From positions 4,306 to 68,305 of the forward strand of contig JAPPJZ010000047.1 of the NCBI GenBank assembly GCA_028874365.1: a DNA stretch of 64,000 nucleotides. Direction: 5' to 3'. How positions within the stretch are numbered: position 1 is the first letter of the stretch; each line of letters starts with the position of its first letter. The translations under genes were made by a program, and so were the position numbers. Positions 10,895-17,319 of this stretch are shown here, one piece after another. This DNA is from Chloroflexota bacterium (GTDB lineage: Bacteria; Chloroflexota; Dehalococcoidia; Bin125). The notes below the pieces were generated by a model. The model was not told the DNA's origin. It ran no database searches and was given only the letters and a program-made list of their open reading frames with translations.

Positions 10895-13800
10895 CTACCA
10901 GCTATCGATGTAGGGCCGTCTGCCTTCGCGGATCGGTTCGGAGTTGGGCACGGCGTCGAGCAGTCGCAGGATCCACTGGCGTGTCTCGGCCGGGTCGATC
11001 ACGTCGTCCGATTCGAGCACCGTGGCGGCGTTGAAGGCGTTGCCGCGCTCGTAGGCGTCGGCGACCATTTCCTCGTAGACGCGGGTTCGTTCTTCGAGGT
11101 CCTCAATCTGTTCGAGCTGCGCTCTCGCTCCCAGTTTGACACCGGCTTCGAGGTTCATGCCGCCGTACTCGGAGGTCGGCCAGCCAACGTTGAACAGGCC
11201 GGCCTCGGTGCTCCCGGCGAGCATCGCCAGCCCGCCGAGTCCGTAACACTTGCGCAGGGTGATCGTCATCTTCGGCGTGGTCAGGTTGGCCAGCGAGACG
11301 AAGACTCGGTGGCAGTGGCGGACGAGGGCGGTCTTCTCGACCTCTGGACCGACCATCATGCCGGGCGTGTCGACCAGCGTCAGCAGCGGGATGTTCCAGC
11401 AGTCGCAGATCTGCGCGAAGCGAGCCAGCTTGTCCGAGCCGTCGCTATCGACCGCGCCTCCGAGATGCATGTTGTTGTTGGCGATCACGCCAACCGGCCG
11501 ACCTTCAATCCGAATCAACGACGTCACGACGCCGATGCCGAACTCGGGTCGCAGTTCCAACACCGAGTCGTGGTCGGCCAACAGATCGATGACCTTGCGC
11601 ACGTCGTAGGTGCGCAACCGGTTCTCGGGAATGACGTGGCGCAAGAGCCGCTGATCCGGTGCGGTCCACTCCGCAAGCCGTCCCTGGAAGTAGGAGAGGT
11701 ACTTCTTCACCGCGGCCATCGCTTCCTCTTCGTCCTTGACGAAGATGTCTACGACGCCGTTCGGCACCTGCTGCGACATTGGGCCGAGTTCCTCGGGCAG
11801 GAACAGCCCCAGCCCGCCGCCCTCGATCACCGCCGGACCGCCCATGGCGATGTTGGAGCCCTCGGTCGCGACGATGATGTCGCACATGCCGAGCATCGAG
11901 GCGTTGCCGGCGAAGCAACGACCGGCAGTGATCGAGACCATGGGCACCTTCCCCGAGAGCTCAGCGAGCCGCTCGAACGTGCGAACGTTTCGCGCCGCGA
12001 CGCGGGTGTATGCCCAGTCGGAATCTCCCGAGCGGCCGCCTGCGCCTTCGGCGATGAAGACCAACGGTGTCAGCAGGCGATGTGCCGTCTCGACCATGCG
12101 GTCCGTTTTCTCGTGACCGCGGCCACCCTGGGTGCCGGCCCAGACCGTTTCGTCGTAGGAAATGATCGCTGTGCTGGCCACGTCGTTCTCAAACAGGTCA
12201 GCGTTGACCGTGCCGATCCCGCAGATCAGGCCGTCGGCCGGCGAGACCACCCGCAGTTCTTCCCATGATCGCTTGCGCCGTTGCGCCGCAACACCGAGCG
12301 GCATGTACTCATTCCAAGTCCCGCCCTCGACGAGCTGGGTGATGTTCTCGCGCGCGGTCCGCTTGCCCTTGGCGTGGCGCCTGGCGACCGGCCCCGGCCG
12401 GGCGTCGTCCAGCAACGCCTCGTGCAGGTCGATGTTGTGCTGCAGGTCGGGGCGGATGTAATCGAGGTCAATCTCACCCGAGCCGCCGTCGACGGCCGGA
12501 CCAACGTCGGCCGGCTCGATGAACACGAGCGGGTGACCCTCCCAGATGATGTCGCCGATCGAGACGGTGATCTCCTGGACGATTCCGCCGATATCGGCCT
12601 GGAGCACGTGCTCCATCTTCATCGCGTTCATGATGATCACGTCCTGGCCGGCGACCACGCTGTCCCCTTCACCAACGAGGATCTCAATGATCGTGCCCTG
12701 GATCGGTGCGCGCAGCGGCTCGGTGCCCGGCGGCCCGATGATCTCCGGCGCGGGGAACCCGGCGCGATCCTCTTCCAGCCCCCGGTTGACATCGAGCGAC
12801 GCCGCACCGGCGCCCTGGCGGAAAAAGTCGAGCGCGGCCAACGGGTCCGTGACCTGGTTCTCAACCTGGGCACCGGCCCAGGCCGACTGTCCTCCGGCGG
12901 ACGCGCCGTTGTCCGATGTCGCAGCCAGTTCGCCGATACGCTCGTCGATCCAGCGCGTGTGGACGTTGCCTGCGATGAACTCCGGATGACTCAGGATGTT
13001 GCGCAGGAACCCGATGTTCGAGTCCGGTCCCTCGAGTTGGAACTCGTCCAACGCCCGCTGAGCTCGACGAACGGCGTCGTTGAAGTTACCGCTCGGATGG
13101 CGGGTGACGACCTTGGCGATCAGGGAATCGAAGTTCGGATTGGCCGCATATCCGGCGTAGCCATAGGTGTCGACACGTACGCCGGGACCGGCGGGCGGAC
13201 GGAACGTGCGCAGCGCGCCAGCGGCCGGACGTACGTCGCCGTCTTCGCGCATCCGCTCGAGGTTGACCCGGGACTGGATGGCAAACCCGCGTAGCGCTGG
13301 CGGAGCGTCGATGCCCAGGTCGGCCAGGGCCGCGCCTTCGGCGATGCGAATCTGGCACTCGACCAGGTCCAGTCCGGCGACCTCTTCGGTCACGGTGTGT
13401 TCGACCTGCAGCCGCGCATTGGCCTCGATGAAGGCGAAGTCGTCGTTGGTGTCGGCGTCGACCAGAAACTCGAACGTGCCGAGATTGGAATAACCGCCGG
13501 CCGCAGCCAGTTCAACCGCGGCCGTGGTGATTCGCTCGCGCAGATCGTCGCTCAACGTCGGTGACGGCGCGATTTCGATCAGCTTCTGGTAACGGCGCTG
13601 GATCGTGCATTCACGCTCCCCGACATGGGTCACAGCGCCATGCTGGTCACCGACAATCTGCACCTCGATGTGTCGCGCCCGGGGAATGAATCGCTCGACG
13701 AAGAGAGCCCCATTGCCGAACGCCGCCTGAGCCTCGCGCGTGCAGCGTTCGAAGGCGTCCTCGATCTCGGACGATTCGTTGATCGCGCGCATCCCGCGCC

Positions 13801-14293
13801 CACCACCACCACCGATCGCCTTGATCACCATTGGTCGGCCGCCGAGCTGCTCGAAGAAGGCGCGAGCCCCGTCCAGGTCGACCGCGTGGTCCGTGCCGGT
13901 CAGGACCGGAACACTGCGCGCTCCGGCGAGCGTGCGAGCGCGGGCCTTGTCGCCGAACAGGGCCAGGGCGGCCGGAGACGGTCCAACGAACGTGATTCCC
14001 GCTTCTTCGCAGGCGCGAGCGAAGTCAGCGTTCTCGGCGAGGAAGCCGTAACCGGGGTGGATGGCGTCGCATTCGTGCTCTTGCGCACGTTCAATGATTT
14101 GGGCGATATCGAGGTAGGCCGCCGGTCCGATCCCCTCCAGTGCGATGACGGTGTCAGCGTGCCGAACGTGGTCAGATGCGCCATCGTCGGACGAGTGGAT
14201 CGCCGCCGTGGCAACTCCGAGTTCAGTTGCAGTCCGCAGGACGCGGACGGCAATTTCACCACGGTTGGCGACGAGCAGGCGTTGAATGGGCAT
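10895..14293 (-). CDS. Single-chain acyl-CoA carboxylase (biotin carboxylase + BCCP + carboxyltransferase), 1132 aa
   Basis: LVANRGEIA, IHPGYGFLAEN, ARLQVEH; biotin motif AMKM; CT motifs GTQG, EGAGGR and DTPGMMVGP. Confidence 0.92.
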   Translation of the reverse strand: MPIQRLLVANRGEIAVRVLRTATELGVATAAIHSSDDGASDHVRHADTVIALEGIGPAAYLDIAQIIERAQEHECDAIHPGYGFLAENADFARACEEAGITFVGPSPAALALFGDKARARTLAGARSVPVLTGTDHAVDLDGARAFFEQLGGRPMVIKAIGGGGGRGMRAINESSEIEDAFERCTREAQAAFGNGALFVERFIPRARHIEVQIVGDQHGAVTHVGERECTIQRRYQKLIEIAPSPTLSDDLRERITTAAVELAAAGGYSNLGTFEFLVDADTNDDFAFIEANARLQVEHTVTEEVAGLDLVECQIRIAEGAALADLGIDAPPALRGFAIQSRVNLERMREDGDVRPAAGALRTFRPPAGPGVRVDTYGYAGYAANPNFDSLIAKVVTRHPSGNFNDAVRRAQRALDEFQLEGPDSNIGFLRNILSHPEFIAGNVHTRWIDERIGELAATSDNGASAGGQSAWAGAQVENQVTDPLAALDFFRQGAGAASLDVNRGLEEDRAGFPAPEIIGPPGTEPLRAPIQGTIIEILVGEGDSVVAGQDVIIMNAMKMEHVLQADIGGIVQEITVSIGDIIWEGHPLVFIEPADVGPAVDGGSGEIDLDYIRPDLQHNIDLHEALLDDARPGPVARRHAKGKRTARENITQLVEGGTWNEYMPLGVAAQRRKRSWEELRVVSPADGLICGIGTVNADLFENDVASTAIISYDETVWAGTQGGRGHEKTDRMVETAHRLLTPLVFIAEGAGGRSGDSDWAYTRVAARNVRTFERLAELSGKVPMVSITAGRCFAGNASMLGMCDIIVATEGSNIAMGGPAVIEGGGLGLFLPEELGPMSQQVPNGVVDIFVKDEEEAMAAVKKYLSYFQGRLAEWTAPDQRLLRHVIPENRLRTYDVRKVIDLLADHDSVLELRPEFGIGVVTSLIRIEGRPVGVIANNNMHLGGAVDSDGSDKLARFAQICDCWNIPLLTLVDTPGMMVGPEVEKTALVRHCHRVFVSLANLTTPKMTITLRKCYGLGGLAMLAGSTEAGLFNVGWPTSEYGGMNLEAGVKLGARAQLEQIEDLEERTRVYEEMVADAYERGNAFNAATVLESDDVIDPAETRQWILRLLDAVPNSEPIREGRRPYIDSW

Positions 14294-14342: not shown

Positions 14343-15437
14343 TCAACCGCTGGCAACGGCGTCGGCGATCAGACTGCCCAGCGCTTCCGTACTGAGGGAA
14401 TCCTCGCCGTCGCCTGCGAGGTCAGCTGAACGATGACCGGCGGCGAGGGTGTCGATAACCGCCTCTTCGATCGTGCTCGCTTCGTTCTCAAGGCCGAGCG
14501 AGTAACGGAGCATCAGAGCAGCGCTGAGGATCATCGCCATCGGATTGGCGATCCCCTGGCCGGCGATGTCGGGCGCGGTGCCGTGGATCGGCTCATAGAG
14601 GCCCAGCGTCGAGCCGTCTTCGGATGCGCCAAGCGAAGCCGAGGGCAGCATGCCCATCGAACCGGCCAGCATTGACGCTTCGTCGGTCAGGATGTCGCCG
14701 AACATATTCTCGGTGACGATCACGTCGAAGTAGGACGGATGGCGAATCAGGTCCATCGCGCAGGCGTCGACGAGGCGGTGTTCCAGGGTGACGTCCGTAT
14801 AGTCCTTCGCGACTTCGTCGGCGATTTCGCGCCACATGCGAGAGGTATCGAGGATGTTGGCCTTATCAACCGAGGTCAGCAGCTTGCGTCGCGACCGAGC
14901 CGTCTCAAAGCCAAGCCGCACGATGCGCTCGACCTCGTGCTCGGAGTAGGCGAGCGTATCGACGGCCTTGCGCTGTCCGTCTTCCTCCCAACGACGCTGC
15001 GGCTCGCCGAAGTAGATGCCGCCGGTCAGTTCGCGCAGCACGACCATGTCAACGGCTTCGACGGTCTCACGCTTGAGCGGTGTGGCGTTGGCGAGGATCG
15101 GCAGCATCTTCACCGGTCGGATATTGGCGAACAGGCCGAGGCCCTTGCGCAGGCCGAGGATCGCCTGCTCCGGCCGAACCGACGCCTTGGGGTCGTCCCA
15201 TTTCGGCCCGCCGACGGCGCCAAACAGGACCGCGTCCTGTGCCTGGCACATGGCCAGCGTCTCGTCGCGCAGGGCGACGCCGTGCGCGTCGATCGACGCG
15301 CCGCCGACCAGGTCCTCGCTGTACTCGAAGGAGTGATCGAATCGGCCGCCAACTGCGTCGAGCACGCGAACCGCCTGCCCGATGACTTCGCCGCCGATTC
15401 CGTCACCGGGCAACAGGGCAATCCTGAAATGAGCCAT
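14343..15437 (-). CDS. leuB: 3-isopropylmalate dehydrogenase
   Basis: LPGDGIGGEV, FGAVGGPKWD, RELTGGIYFG, VDKANIL, ENMFGDILTD, YEPIHGTAPDIAG. Confidence 0.96.
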   Translation of the reverse strand: MAHFRIALLPGDGIGGEVIGQAVRVLDAVGGRFDHSFEYSEDLVGGASIDAHGVALRDETLAMCQAQDAVLFGAVGGPKWDDPKASVRPEQAILGLRKGLGLFANIRPVKMLPILANATPLKRETVEAVDMVVLRELTGGIYFGEPQRRWEEDGQRKAVDTLAYSEHEVERIVRLGFETARSRRKLLTSVDKANILDTSRMWREIADEVAKDYTDVTLEHRLVDACAMDLIRHPSYFDVIVTENMFGDILTDEASMLAGSMGMLPSASLGASEDGSTLGLYEPIHGTAPDIAGQGIANPMAMILSAALMLRYSLGLENEASTIEEAVIDTLAAGHRSADLAGDGEDSLSTEALGSLIADAVASG

Positions 15438-15449
15438 ACCTGTCAGTTC

Positions 15450-15656
15450 CTAATCGTCGCTGGAGCGCTCACCCGGAGCGCGTTCTGGAGACACTCAACA
15501 GCCTGGATCGCCGTAGTTGCCACAGCAGATCTGTCGCTCTGTCAGCCTATTCCACCAAATGGCGAGCACCCCGGTGACCAGTCGCCAACCGCTGCGGCCT
15601 TCGGCGCGCAGGTTGGCAATCGCGTCGAGGAATGAGGGTTTCGGGTGCTTTAGCAT
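15450..15656 (-). CDS. Small Cys-rich protein, copy 2; candidate selenoprotein (53 aa to UGA, 68 aa with UGA=Sec)
   Basis: Hand translation MLKHPKPSFLDAIANLRAEGRSGWRLVTGVLAIWWNRLTERQICCGNYGDPGC-[TGA 15497..15495]-VSPERAPGERSSDD-TAG. Not in the ORF track. Paralog of 15762..16013. Confidence 0.7.
15465..15481 (-). promoter_or_regulatory. Candidate bacterial SECIS hairpin (copy 2)
   Basis: mRNA GCGCUC-CGGGU-GAGCGC at +14..+30 after UGA. Confidence 0.6.
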
Positions 15657-15761
15657 CTGAACGCTCTCAGTTGCATCTATCGAACCGCCGAGGCCGCGGT
15701 GTTAGGCGTCAATCGCCACCCATCTTCAACCCGGGCCGCAAGATCGCCACTCCCGGAACCA

Positions 15762-16013
15762 TTAATGTCCATGATCGTGGTGGTGGTTGCGGCGGTGATC
15801 GTGATCGTGGTCTTCCGTCTCCATGCGCTCGGCCCGAGCGCGCTCACCGGACACTCAACAACCCGGGTCACCGTAGTTGCCGCAGCAGTTGTCGACATTC
15901 CGCAGCTTGATCAGATTGTTCTTGATCAGACCGTAGATGGCATGACGCCTACCGATCGATCGGCGCAGGTTGGTAATGGTGTCGCCAATGGTCGGCCTTG
16001 GATGCTGGGGCAT
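15762..16013 (-). CDS. Small Cys-rich protein, copy 1; candidate selenoprotein with His-rich tail (52 aa to UGA, 83 aa with UGA=Sec)
   Basis: MPQHPRPTIGDTITNLRRSIGRRHAIYGLIKNNLIKLRNVDNCCGNYGDPGC-[TGA 15857..15855]-VSGERARAERMETEDHDHDHRRNHHHDHGH-TAA. Confidence 0.7.
15825..15841 (-). promoter_or_regulatory. Candidate bacterial SECIS hairpin (copy 1)
   Basis: mRNA GCGCUC-GGGCC-GAGCGC at +14..+30 after UGA; possible lower stem GUGUCC/GGAGAC (5 of 6 pairs). Confidence 0.6.
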
Positions 16014-16077
16014 GGCATGCTTCTGTCCAGTGGGCCTGGTTCTTGATTGCAAACAGGATAGGGAGCTAGTGACTAAC

Positions 16078-16719
16078 TCAGCGCCAGACTCTCGTCAGGT
16101 CGACGATCAGGCCCTCGGCCACGTCTTCGCCGCTCAGCGAATCTGGACGCTCTAGTCGCTCTGGTTCGGAATCGCCCTGCCGATACACCCAGACTTCACC
16201 TTCCTCGGTGTAGACGTCGATCAACCAGCCGAGCCGAGCATCGGAGGCCATCCACTCCTGCATCTTCTCTTGCTGCTGTTGAGCGCTCTGCGATACCGAA
16301 CGCAACTCCACGATTAATTCAGGGCAGATTGGCCAAAAGCCTTCATCATCCGGCTTCGTGTTCTCGAGCAAGCTTCCACTCGCCCATGCCGCGTCGGGAG
16401 AGCGCACTGCGCTGTTGGGCAGTCGGAAGCCAGTACCTGAGTCGAAGACCTTACCGTCTTGAGTTTTGGCCCACCAAATGTACAACTGGCCGGATAGGTG
16501 AAGAGAGCGGCTGCCGCCGACAGAACCAGTTGGAACAGAAATTTCGAGCGCTCCTTCCGCGTTGCGCTCGAAGCGCCAGAAATCGTTGAGACCACTAATG
16601 GCCAACAGCAACTCGTCGGTGAGGAGGCCCGATGGAAACCGGACAACGAGGGGCCCGGCAGCGGCCTGGGAGTCAGGAGATCCTGTCGTCTGCTCAGTCT
16701 TGATTGCTGCCTGGACCAT
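16078..16719 (-). CDS. Uma2 family (DUF820) PD-(D/E)XK endonuclease-like protein
   Basis: RFERNAEGALEI, DSGTGFRLPNSAVRSPDAAW, CPELIVELRS, ARLGWLID. Confidence 0.9.
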   Translation of the reverse strand: MVQAAIKTEQTTGSPDSQAAAGPLVVRFPSGLLTDELLLAISGLNDFWRFERNAEGALEISVPTGSVGGSRSLHLSGQLYIWWAKTQDGKVFDSGTGFRLPNSAVRSPDAAWASGSLLENTKPDDEGFWPICPELIVELRSVSQSAQQQQEKMQEWMASDARLGWLIDVYTEEGEVWVYRQGDSEPERLERPDSLSGEDVAEGLIVDLTRVWR

Positions 16720-16728
16720 AGGTTGATC

Positions 16729-17319
16729 CTAGAGTGTTACCGGTTTGGTCGACGGTCGTTTGGACTCGTAGTCCGAAATGAGGTCGTCGTGCTCGAGGGT
16801 CAAGGAGATGTCATCAAGGCCGTTGAGCAGGCAGTGTTTGACGAACGGGGCGATGTCGAAGGACCGTACCCAGCCCCCGGGCGCGCTGACGGTCTGGTCT
16901 TCGAGGCTGACCGTGATCGGCGTGTTGGACTCCGACTCGACCATGCGCATCAGCTCTTCGACATCTGGCTGCGGAAGCTGGATCGTGAGTAGGCCCATCT
17001 TGGCCGAGTTATTGCGGAAGATGTCGGCGAACCCGGGTGCGATCACCGCTTTGACGCCCATCCCCTGAATTGCCCAGACGGCGTGTTCGCGGGAGGAGCC
17101 GCAGCCGAAGTTGGGGCCGGCGAGCATCACGCTGGCGCCCTGGTACTGCGGCTGGTTGGTGACGAAGTCGGGATCCTTGGCCCAGGCCTCGAACGCGAAC
17201 GGACCGTAGCCCGTCCGCTCAATCCGCTTGAGGTACTTGGCTGGAATGATCTGGTCGGTGTCGACGTCGGCGCGGTCGAGCGGCAATCCTGTACCGCTGA
17301 AGGTCGTGACGGGATCCAT
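16729..17319 (-). CDS. leuD: 3-isopropylmalate dehydratase small subunit
   Basis: DVDTDQIIPAKYLK, NFGCGSSREHA, FADIFRNN, LLNGLDDI. ATG 17319 has GGAG upstream. Confidence 0.96.
   Translation of the reverse strand: MDPVTTFSGTGLPLDRADVDTDQIIPAKYLKRIERTGYGPFAFEAWAKDPDFVTNQPQYQGASVMLAGPNFGCGSSREHAVWAIQGMGVKAVIAPGFADIFRNNSAKMGLLTIQLPQPDVEELMRMVESESNTPITVSLEDQTVSAPGGWVRSFDIAPFVKHCLLNGLDDISLTLEHDDLISDYESKRPSTKPVTL

Follow-up and report, generated by a model that had tools for sequence, protein, structure and literature searches.

Two small genes upstream of leuB in a Chloroflexota genome apparently belong to a new family of small bacterial selenoproteins

INTRODUCTION

A 64,000-nucleotide (nt) stretch of a Chloroflexota genome (contig JAPPJZ010000047.1, positions 4,306 to 68,305; the whole stretch is referred to here as the window) carries two small paralogous genes upstream of leuB. 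Both reading frames reach a UGA directly after the motif CCGNYGDPGC, and both continue beyond it. Do these UGA codons end the two proteins, or do they specify selenocysteine (Sec)? A preliminary description of the locus had proposed a new selenoprotein system, with a hairpin resembling the selenocysteine insertion sequence (SECIS) of bacteria. Using homologs from genomes and metagenomes, we conclude that both genes are very probably genuine selenoprotein genes of an apparently new small bacterial family with a canonical SECIS. Directly supporting this view, the UGA, the hairpin, and the frame beyond the UGA are all conserved, and related carriers have Sec machinery; from these observations, we infer actual Sec insertion.

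RESULTS

The two small genes and their in-frame UGA codons

The features of the two genes are as follows.

15858..16013, minus strand: copy 1 core, 52 amino acids (aa), MPQHPRPTIGDTITNLRRSIGRRHAIYGLIKNNLIKLRNVDNCCGNYGDPGC, ending at the Cys preceding the UGA
15855..15857, minus strand: copy 1 UGA, proposed Sec codon; PGC is followed by TGA throughout the family
15825..15841, minus strand: copy 1 SECIS-like hairpin GCGCUC(G)-GGC-(C)GAGCGC, 14-30 nt past the UGA
15765..15854, minus strand: copy 1 post-UGA tail, 30 codons, VSGERARAERMETEDHDHDHRRNHHHDHGH, His-rich
15762..15764, minus strand: copy 1 second stop, TAA
15498..15656, minus strand: copy 2 core, 53 aa, MLKHPKPSFLDAIANLRAEGRSGWRLVTGVLAIWWNRLTERQICCGNYGDPGC
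15495..15497, minus strand: copy 2 UGA, proposed Sec codon
15465..15481, minus strand: copy 2 SECIS-like hairpin GCGCUC-CGGGU-GAGCGC, 14-30 nt past the UGA
15453..15494, minus strand: copy 2 post-UGA tail, 14 codons, VSPERAPGERSSDD
15450..15452, minus strand: copy 2 second stop, TAG, overlapping the conserved GACTAGGAAC

The cores read MPQHPRP...NCCGNYGDPGC (copy 1) and MLKHPKP...ICCGNYGDPGC (copy 2), each followed by TGA. The start of copy 1 is most plausibly the ATG at 16013, since the homologous proteins P0002-P0006 begin there. In both copies, GTGTC directly follows the TGA, and the stem GCGCTC/GAGCGC occupies positions +14 to +30, with GGGCC as the loop in copy 1 and CGGGT in copy 2. The frames stay open past the UGA for 30 and 14 codons, and the TAG of copy 2 sits 12 nt ahead of the leuB ATG (15437). 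On each of these details the preliminary description was accurate.

Invariance of the UGA among homologs

An initial protein search returned only six relatives, all from Chloroflexota metagenome-assembled genomes (MAGs). These loci share the gene order leuD-(Uma2)-small gene(s)-leuB, and in each copy PGC is followed by TGA and then by an in-frame peptide that is conserved. A degenerate DNA pattern for CCGxYGxPGC, TGYTGYGGNNNNTAYGGNGNNCCNGGNTGY, in which any codon may come next, was then run against one genome per GTDB species and against the JGI metagenomes. At least 133 distinct family sequences, corresponding to 54 clusters at 70% amino acid identity, were recovered from the GTDB species genomes, all followed by TGA, and the metagenomes contributed 118 further instances, with TGA next in 118/118. 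Six pattern matches with another next codon (four from genomes and two from metagenomes) all lacked the family N-terminus and were chance matches. No Cys codon, TAA, or TAG was seen at the UGA position in the at least 133 genome instances, the 118 metagenome instances, or 125 proteins. Since neighboring conserved genes in the same loci use TGA for only 43% of their stops (TAG, 43%; TAA, 14%), an ordinary stop would not stay TGA in at least 54 independent lineages; the chance of TGA in all 54 clusters is 0.43^54, or about 1e-20.

Among the matches listed, members occur in Chloroflexota (Dehalococcoidia, Caldilineae, Anaerolineales, Roseiflexaceae, Tepidiformaceae, and Limnocylindria), in many "Candidatus Dormibacterota," in Acidimicrobiia and other Actinomycetota, and in a Desulfohalobiaceae MAG. 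By these matches, the family has a wide distribution in Chloroflexota, Dormibacterota, and some Actinomycetota. Complete Dehalococcoidia chromosomes are among the carriers, e.g., OZ241849.1, OZ241982.1, and OY282365.1. In a Dormibacterota-type subgroup, ATG invariably follows the UGA; elsewhere, the codons at this place include GTC, CAG, CGC, AAA, GCG, and ACG.

A profile search of 5.8 billion proteins yielded 206 members of 42 to 81 aa, all labeled "hypothetical" and without Pfam domains. Of the 125 that were fetched, 124 end exactly at PGC. The sole exception, P0188, ends in PGCWM and was rejected as an extended homolog, as the JGI gene call had read TGA as Trp where the DNA is TGA ATG ACT…. 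This locus (L130, 103-259; JGI 3300001536) is an annotation artifact that could mislead searches for read-through or for Cys/Trp variants.

Coding signature after the UGA

Pairwise differences were counted by codon position in the UGA frame over the first 12 post-UGA codons. The counts for the three positions were 1425, 1237, and 2900 in the Dormibacterota group and 1921, 2383, and 3485 in the window's group, and in both groups the third-position excess was specific to the UGA frame. In the Dormibacterota group, the synonymous fraction was 0.48 in the UGA frame versus 0.19 and 0.12 in the two others, and in the window's group, it was 0.32 versus 0.13 and 0.17; undisputed upstream coding sequence gave 0.54 to 0.57. 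At least 10 open codons follow the UGA in its own frame in 127/136 members, versus 77/136 in each of the other frames. The conserved coding beyond the UGA that the preliminary description had called for is thus visible among the homologs as a coding signature in the UGA frame.

Tails after the UGA have a median length of 14 aa (range, 0 to 50) and a mean charge of -1.1 and end at TAG in 76 cases, TGA in 39, and TAA in 21; MTKDEARAAGLIK is an example. Downstream stretches of the HxHxH type number 27 in the UGA frame, 1 in the +1 frame, and 0 in the +2 frame. His-rich tails recur in at least 9 tail subfamilies, with HxHxH/HDHDH after the UGA in 21/137 members, and a stretch of the same type stands at the N-terminus of other members, e.g., MSDGGHHHEHEHGHHHEHH....

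The closest relative of the window locus, L028, is almost identical to it in the core and hairpin, with synonymous changes only in the core. Its His tail differs from that of the window by many CAC/CAT and GAT/GAC swaps that keep the frame and leave the tail His- and Asp-rich, and the similarity collapses directly past the second stop. Side by side, the tail at window positions 15765-15824 (minus strand), EDHDHDHRRNHHHDHGH, and that of L028, EDHDHHHGHDHGHGHDHH, differ in length by one codon, and this stretch is fast-evolving. From this pattern of substitutions, the His-rich extension looks like a repeat-driven, selected metal-binding tail. Orthologs of the copy 2 tail read VSPERAP[GE]ER[PS][TS][DE][DE], with changes at wobble positions.

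Tails of 0 to 7 codons are found in L054, L011, L017, L107, and L209 (1406-1432). In L054, a TAG directly follows the UGA, which would make Sec the last residue of the protein; the second stop of L209 falls within the SECIS loop. In such members, the SECIS would act wholly or partly from untranslated sequence.

A hairpin at a fixed distance from the UGA

Published criteria for bacterial SECIS (bSECIS) elements ask for a loop of 3 to 9 nt, a stem of at least 4 bp, a G in the first two loop positions, a distance of 16 to 37 nt from the UGA, and a minimum free energy (MFE) of ≤ -7.5 (PMC13188914). Hairpins of this description follow the UGA in 220/228 unique family sequences, including both window copies, and are also present in 68% of the ordinary stop-codon contexts of these GC-rich genomes. 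Because these loose criteria admit so many controls and lone hairpins are at chance level, significance comes from the comparison of homologs only.

As controls for a stricter test of position and loop, we used the 926 sequence contexts that follow ordinary stops of these loci. The best hairpin had its loop start 19 to 24 nt after the UGA, with a G in the first two loop positions, in 192/228 members (84%) versus 70/926 controls (7.6%); for loops with G[GU], the figures were 188/228 and 35/926. The position is kept while the stems vary by lineage. There are 54 different 5' stem arms, with pairs such as GCGCUC/GAGCGC, GACGCUCA/UGAGCGUC, GCGUUCA/UGAACGC, GGGACUG/CAGUCCC, GAGACUG/CAGUCUC, GCCGUCCG/CGGACGGC, GAGCCCG/CGGGCUC, CAAUCCG/CGGAUUG, and GGCC/GGCC.

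In a MAFFT alignment of all subfamilies, the loops are in register and the stems are not (loops of 3 versus 5 nt), so covariation was counted only within the Chloroflexota group. The count used an ungapped, UGA-anchored alignment of 42 distinct Chloroflexota-type sequences, with the window hairpin as the structure. Pairing was possible in 81% of the cells, versus 26 to 53% when the 3' partner was slid by 1 to 3 columns, and 4/8 stem pairs change on both sides. Double-change cells numbered 28, versus 8.8±2.9 in column shuffles, none of 500 of which reached 28, and the covariation score was 0.172, versus 0.074 in shuffles and at most 0.086 in slid controls. The hairpin is thus conserved among homologs, as had been anticipated, in the sense that its position and loop type are kept and its stem sequence covaries.

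The element is kept also in loci whose next gene is an unrelated one or is read from the other strand. No terminator-like or promoter-like consensus site was found in 15300-16800, and no U-run follows the stems; the sequences past them are AUGGAGAC and UCCAGCGA. Rfam gave no meaningful match at its gathering thresholds or by E value.

Selenocysteine machinery in related carriers

Contig MPNM01000004.1 ("Chloroflexi bacterium bin125"; L016) carries three family copies between Uma2 and leuB, and its copy A shares 75% identity with copy 1 of the window. The corresponding assembly, MPNM00000000, is bin125, a MAG of 93% completeness obtained from the sponge Aplysina aerophoba (Slaby et al. 2017; PMC5649159, Table 2), for which one gene each is recorded for SelA (COG1921), SelB (COG3276), and SelD (COG0709) (PMC5649159, Supplementary Table S4). 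All nine Chloroflexi bins of that study have SelA, SelB, and SelD, and its authors report SelA and SelB to be enriched in sponge symbionts (PMC5649159). In BSepDB, the MAGs richest in selenoprotein genes include some from Dehalococcoidia that have 46 to 49 (PMC13326102).

On a metagenome contig, Ga0316577_10000099 (L209), the family gene itself (MCSEKGNEG...CCGNYGEPGC-UGA-RAAPDTP-stop) lies about 5 kb from a gene for a 641-aa SelB with GTP_EFTU, Beta-barrel_SelB, SelB-wing_2, and SelB-wing_3 domains, all above the Pfam thresholds.

Points against a selenoprotein and alternative explanations

Several observations weigh against reading these genes as selenoprotein genes with an assigned function. 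With Escherichia coli queries, tblastn detected no SelA, SelB, or SelD in the 64-kb window, which spans nearly all of its contig of about 66 kb, or in about 1.6 Mb of homologous loci, except the SelB of L209; ARAGORN found no selenocysteine tRNA or transfer-messenger RNA in the window or any locus; and two crude heuristic scans for genes with both an in-frame TGA and a SECIS-like hairpin found no other recognizable selenoprotein gene in the window and loci. A Cys-containing homolog is the usual corroboration for a new selenoprotein family, and the preliminary description had pointed to it as a check; there was none among about 250 DNA instances and 125 proteins, a criterion that is corroborating for selenoprotein genes and not defining. 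The window hairpins, folded alone as two 53-nt stretches, are not unusual for sequence of 65% GC when set against dinucleotide shuffles (MFE of -18.2 kcal/mol, z = -0.43, and -13.5 kcal/mol, z = +0.54); single-sequence z-scores are not informative in this case. The upper stem of the Dormibacterota subgroup has only 4 bp (GGCC/GGCC), and the same subgroup may have a separate 13-codon open reading frame (ORF) after the UGA. A few members have tails of 0 to 4 codons, which would place the SECIS in untranslated sequence. Finally, the functional assignment discussed below is one that we infer from motif chemistry and lineage-specific neighborhoods only.

Among the alternatives, we consider first that the hairpin recodes the UGA to a residue other than Sec, either to Cys by SelB and a noncanonical tRNA or to Trp or Cys by near-cognate read-through. 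The cis signals would be expected to match those of Sec insertion, and the literature does cite tRNA(Cys)/SelB systems; Vargas-Rodriguez et al. (2018) reportedly described them, and a Cys route is said to exist in some Desulfobacterales. If the residue were Cys, however, UGA-to-UGY mutations should be tolerated and visible, and none were seen; moreover, carriers have the Sec synthesis genes SelA and SelD, and the hairpin geometry with its G[GU] loop fits a canonical bSECIS. We consider recoding to another residue very improbable.

Equally improbable, in our estimate, is that the small genes encode precursors of ribosomally synthesized and posttranslationally modified peptides, with a leader and a core, CCGxYGxPGC[U], to be cleaved and modified. 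In favor are the small size of the genes, their occurrence in tandem sets of two or three paralogs, an invariant C-terminal Cys-rich motif beside a variable N-terminal part, and the cataloging of selenium-containing bacteriocin-like peptides (TIGR04081; PMC13188914). Yet no maturase, protease, or exporter is conserved nearby, the neighbors being housekeeping genes that differ by lineage; the N-terminal two-helix part has the conserved residues N15, L16, and N32 and a predicted fold; and the family is single-copy in most lineages. This explanation is in any case compatible with Sec insertion and competes on function only.

We give slightly less credence still to an ordinary stop, with Cys-rich peptides of 52 to 53 aa as the products and a hairpin that serves mRNA stability, processing, termination, or the regulation of leuB. 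Gene callers annotate every member in this way, the window hairpins fold no better than shuffles, and some of the nucleotide conservation at the end of the copy 2 tail could be due to its overlap with the probable leuB ribosome-binding site; but this account leaves unexplained the absence of TAA and TAG from about 250 instances whose neighbors use TGA in 43% of cases, the codon-periodic substitutions in the UGA frame, the frame-specific His-rich tails, and the loss of similarity only past the second stop, and it is at odds with the lack of a U-tract and with the presence of the hairpin ahead of unrelated or oppositely oriented genes as well.

Three further candidates were rejected. A terminator, which the preliminary description had named as a competing possibility, does not in its Rho-independent form fit a GC-rich hairpin without a U-run. 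A separate downstream mini-ORF fails as a general explanation, as the codon after the UGA is ATG in the Dormibacterota-type subgroup only. An alternative genetic code (UGA as Trp or Gly) is contradicted by TGA as the stop of window ORFs and of 43% of neighboring genes; the organism uses the standard code, because TGA terminates leuB, the Uma2 gene, and eight other long ORFs in the window, all at the expected lengths.

Protein features and gene neighborhoods

C43, C44, G45, G48, P50, G51, and C52 are invariant in the family, and Y47, N15, L16, and N32 are nearly so. The core is strongly basic (mean net charge across the family, +5.5). An AlphaFold2 model of moderate confidence from a 125-sequence alignment has helices at 9-19 and 23-42 and an unstructured Cys-rich end (mean pLDDT, 70; pTM, 0.32), the C-terminus being coil with a pLDDT of about 56 to 61. 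Six diverse members, searched as the core or as the core plus C plus tail, gave no Pfam or NCBIfam 20.0 match at an E value of ≤10, and a profile search of the PDB found no relative.

On the minus strand of the window, the gene order is leuD, Uma2-family gene, small gene 1, small gene 2, leuB, and carboxylase fusion, with the neighbors placed as follows.

17331-16729, minus strand: leuD, context gene
16719-16078, minus strand: Uma2-family gene (PF05685), upstream neighbor of the small genes
14343..15437, minus strand: leuB, 3-isopropylmalate dehydrogenase (PF00180), downstream neighbor
10895-14293, minus strand: fused biotin carboxylase, biotinyl/lipoyl carrier, and carboxyltransferase polypeptide, 1132 aa

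leuB is probably cotranscribed with the small genes, and GACTAGGAAC is probably its ribosome-binding site (Shine-Dalgarno sequence). The 1132-aa fusion gene lies directly downstream of leuB, a synteny kept in relatives. In the window, as in many relatives, the Uma2 gene separates leuD from the small genes; in L028 and L001, leuD adjoins the small genes, and Uma2 looks like a variable insertion into the leu cluster from this comparison of gene orders. A third tandem paralog lies between the two copies in L002 (6373-6576), L015, L027, L039, and L119. It reads …SCCGRYGDPGC-UGA-TGPPDAQDERPTDE-stop and has a compensatory stem change (GACGCUCA/UGAGCGUC); its place in the window is taken by a 105-nt spacer (15657-15761). 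Antisense ORFs are long over real genes, e.g., one of 298 aa at 14739-15635 (plus strand), opposite leuB and the small genes. Such ORFs are typical high-GC artifacts, and they defeat scans for in-frame-TGA genes that are based on GC content at third codon positions.

Gene neighborhoods differ by lineage. In Dehalococcoidia and relatives, the small gene (X) stands in the order leuC/leuD-(Uma2)-X-leuB, and in Dormibacterota, the order is YajQ-hisA-DUF3465-X with an SDR gene on the opposite strand. In one Dehalococcoidia clade (L020, L032, L059, L069, L109, and L120), X follows genes for SufBD and a flavin reductase-rubredoxin and precedes those for ferritin-like, rubrerythrin, and flavodiiron proteins and then a heavy-metal P-type ATPase; this neighborhood is an oxidative-stress and metal cluster. 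Clustering of neighbors from 127 loci revealed no conserved partner, maturation, or export gene, only lineage-specific housekeeping neighbors, and the family is single-copy in most lineages. Since no partner is universal, X is a stand-alone gene. Of the "selenoprotein system" first proposed, then, the selenoprotein part is supported, and the word "system" overstates a stand-alone family without conserved partner genes.

DISCUSSION

Proposed mechanism and function

If the two genes are selenoprotein genes, as we think very probable, translation would arrive at the UGA right after ...CCGNYGDPGC. The hairpin 14 to 30 nt past the UGA would be the bacterial SECIS, recruiting SelB with GTP and Sec-tRNA(Sec); Sec would be inserted, and translation would run on through the SECIS-encoding stretch to the second, ordinary stop. 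The predicted products are selenoproteins of about 83 aa (copy 1) and 68 aa (copy 2). The preliminary description saw them as CCGNYGDPGC-U proteins with three Cys plus Sec, a view that UGA invariance, hairpin covariation, and post-UGA coding support. Each would consist of a basic two-helix body, a flexible C-C-G-x-Y-G-x-P-G-C-U knuckle, and a short acidic or His-rich tail. In the knuckle, two vicinal pairs, Cys-Cys and Cys-Sec, would sit seven residues from each other on a flexible arm. The lack of Cys forms among the sequences is unusual and suggests that selenium is essential to the chemistry of the family.

Our best guess at function is the binding or handling of soft metals or a thiol/selenol redox role, linked to oxidative stress and metal homeostasis. 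It draws on the Cys3Sec motif, the recurrent His-rich tails and N-termini, and the stress/metal neighborhood of one clade. By analogy with the Cys-Sec arm of thioredoxin reductase, the C-terminal Cys-Cys of MerA, and the CU-motif selenoproteins, all compared below, the arm may bind soft metals, or it may cycle between a selenenylsulfide/disulfide and a selenolate/thiolate state. Metal handling and redox protection are favored because His-rich ends recur and because the stress/metal cluster is present in one clade. Between these, metal binding or chaperoning is a tentative choice that we would not put at even odds, and a redox role seems rather unlikely; other functions make up the remainder.

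A more speculative variant, which we regard as improbable, is an obligate-Sec basic mini-protein whose knuckle would handle a soft metal or selenium itself, e.g., as a selenium or metal carrier or sensor, with read-through possibly also gating translation of the downstream biosynthetic gene. In predicted folds, the UGA-proximal GUCUC pairs with GACGACU just before the copy 2 TAG (window 15438-15497, minus strand). Read-through of copy 2 might influence leuB translation, as such folds would allow; if so, the overlap of the stop with the leuB ribosome-binding site would link selenium or redox status to leucine operon expression.

Novelty and significance

The family is absent from the 119 selenoprotein families and subfamilies of the May 2026 catalog (PMC13188914), and its motif strings were not found in the open literature searched (subscription journals were not covered). 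If it is what it appears to be, it is a phylogenetically broad addition to the roughly 119 cataloged families, ranging over Dehalococcoidia/SAR202-like sponge symbionts, other Chloroflexota, soil Dormibacterota, Acidimicrobiia, and a few Desulfobacterota. It would also be among the smallest selenoprotein families and one without Cys homologs, which argues that the selenium atom is indispensable. All of the database copies found are truncated at the UGA and labeled "hypothetical," so annotation pipelines miss the family. The roughly 54 stems that occur naturally at one set distance from the UGA make the family a compact test case for how a SECIS works. The family is also a pointer to selenium use in lineages for which the literature searched does not discuss it, Dormibacterota among them, and its place in the leu and his operons and in an oxidative-stress cluster provides testable leads to function.

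Comparison with known systems

The CCG domain of the HdrB/GlpC type (PF02754) has the motif CXnCCGXmCXXC. As in that domain, a conserved Cys-Cys-Gly is followed in the family by additional Cys residues able in principle to coordinate a metal or Fe-S center; the family differs in spacing and in having a single short motif. An HdrB-type CCG domain was rejected, there being no Pfam match at an E value of ≤10. Metallochaperones of the HypB, UreE, and SlyD type have His-rich tails, and the HxHxH/HDHDH stretches at either end of family proteins resemble these in composition only, without homology. MerA carries a C-terminal Cys-Cys.

Cataloged families with a CU motif or a C-terminal Sec include SaoC "Cys-Cys-COOH" (NF040734), KCU-star/DUF466 (NF033934), MbdU (NF045648), and UXX-star (PMC13188914, Table 1), and CU-motif selenoproteins have been proposed by Haft to be metal ligands (listed in PMC13188914). 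Like the present family, these are small or have the Cys-Sec in a tail, near the C-terminus; they are proposed metal or metalloid ligands and are truncated by gene callers. They differ from it in motif, taxonomic range, and gene neighborhoods, and no NCBIfam or Pfam model scores the family, even with U changed to C and the tail included.

High-Mr thioredoxin reductase has a C-terminal Gly-Cys-Sec-Gly redox center. The likeness is a vicinal Cys-Sec pair after Gly on a flexible C-terminal arm. In contrast to the reductase, the family lacks a flavoprotein domain, the whole protein being about 70 aa, and has a second pair (Cys-Cys) seven residues upstream, and its Sec is followed by 0 to 50 residues instead of by Gly and a stop.

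A further comparison is with the bacterial SECIS of the E. coli fdhF type and the model of Zhang and Gladyshev (PMC13188914), in which an in-frame UGA is likewise followed at once by a hairpin in the coding region. The family hairpin differs in having an upper stem of down to 4 bp (Dormibacterota) and, in some members, a second stop inside or before the hairpin that leaves the SECIS partly or entirely untranslated, and no Rfam model matches it. It agrees in its apical loop of 3 to 5 nt that starts with G and then G or U, in a loop start 19 to 24 nt past the UGA, within the 16 to 37 nt of the model, and in a lower stem that includes the UGA in some members. Several subgroups have GU at 20 to 21 nt after the UGA, which we take to be where G23/U24 of fdhF lie. 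Taken with the sequence evidence above, this resemblance suggests what is apparently a new selenoprotein family that uses a known bacterial decoding mechanism.

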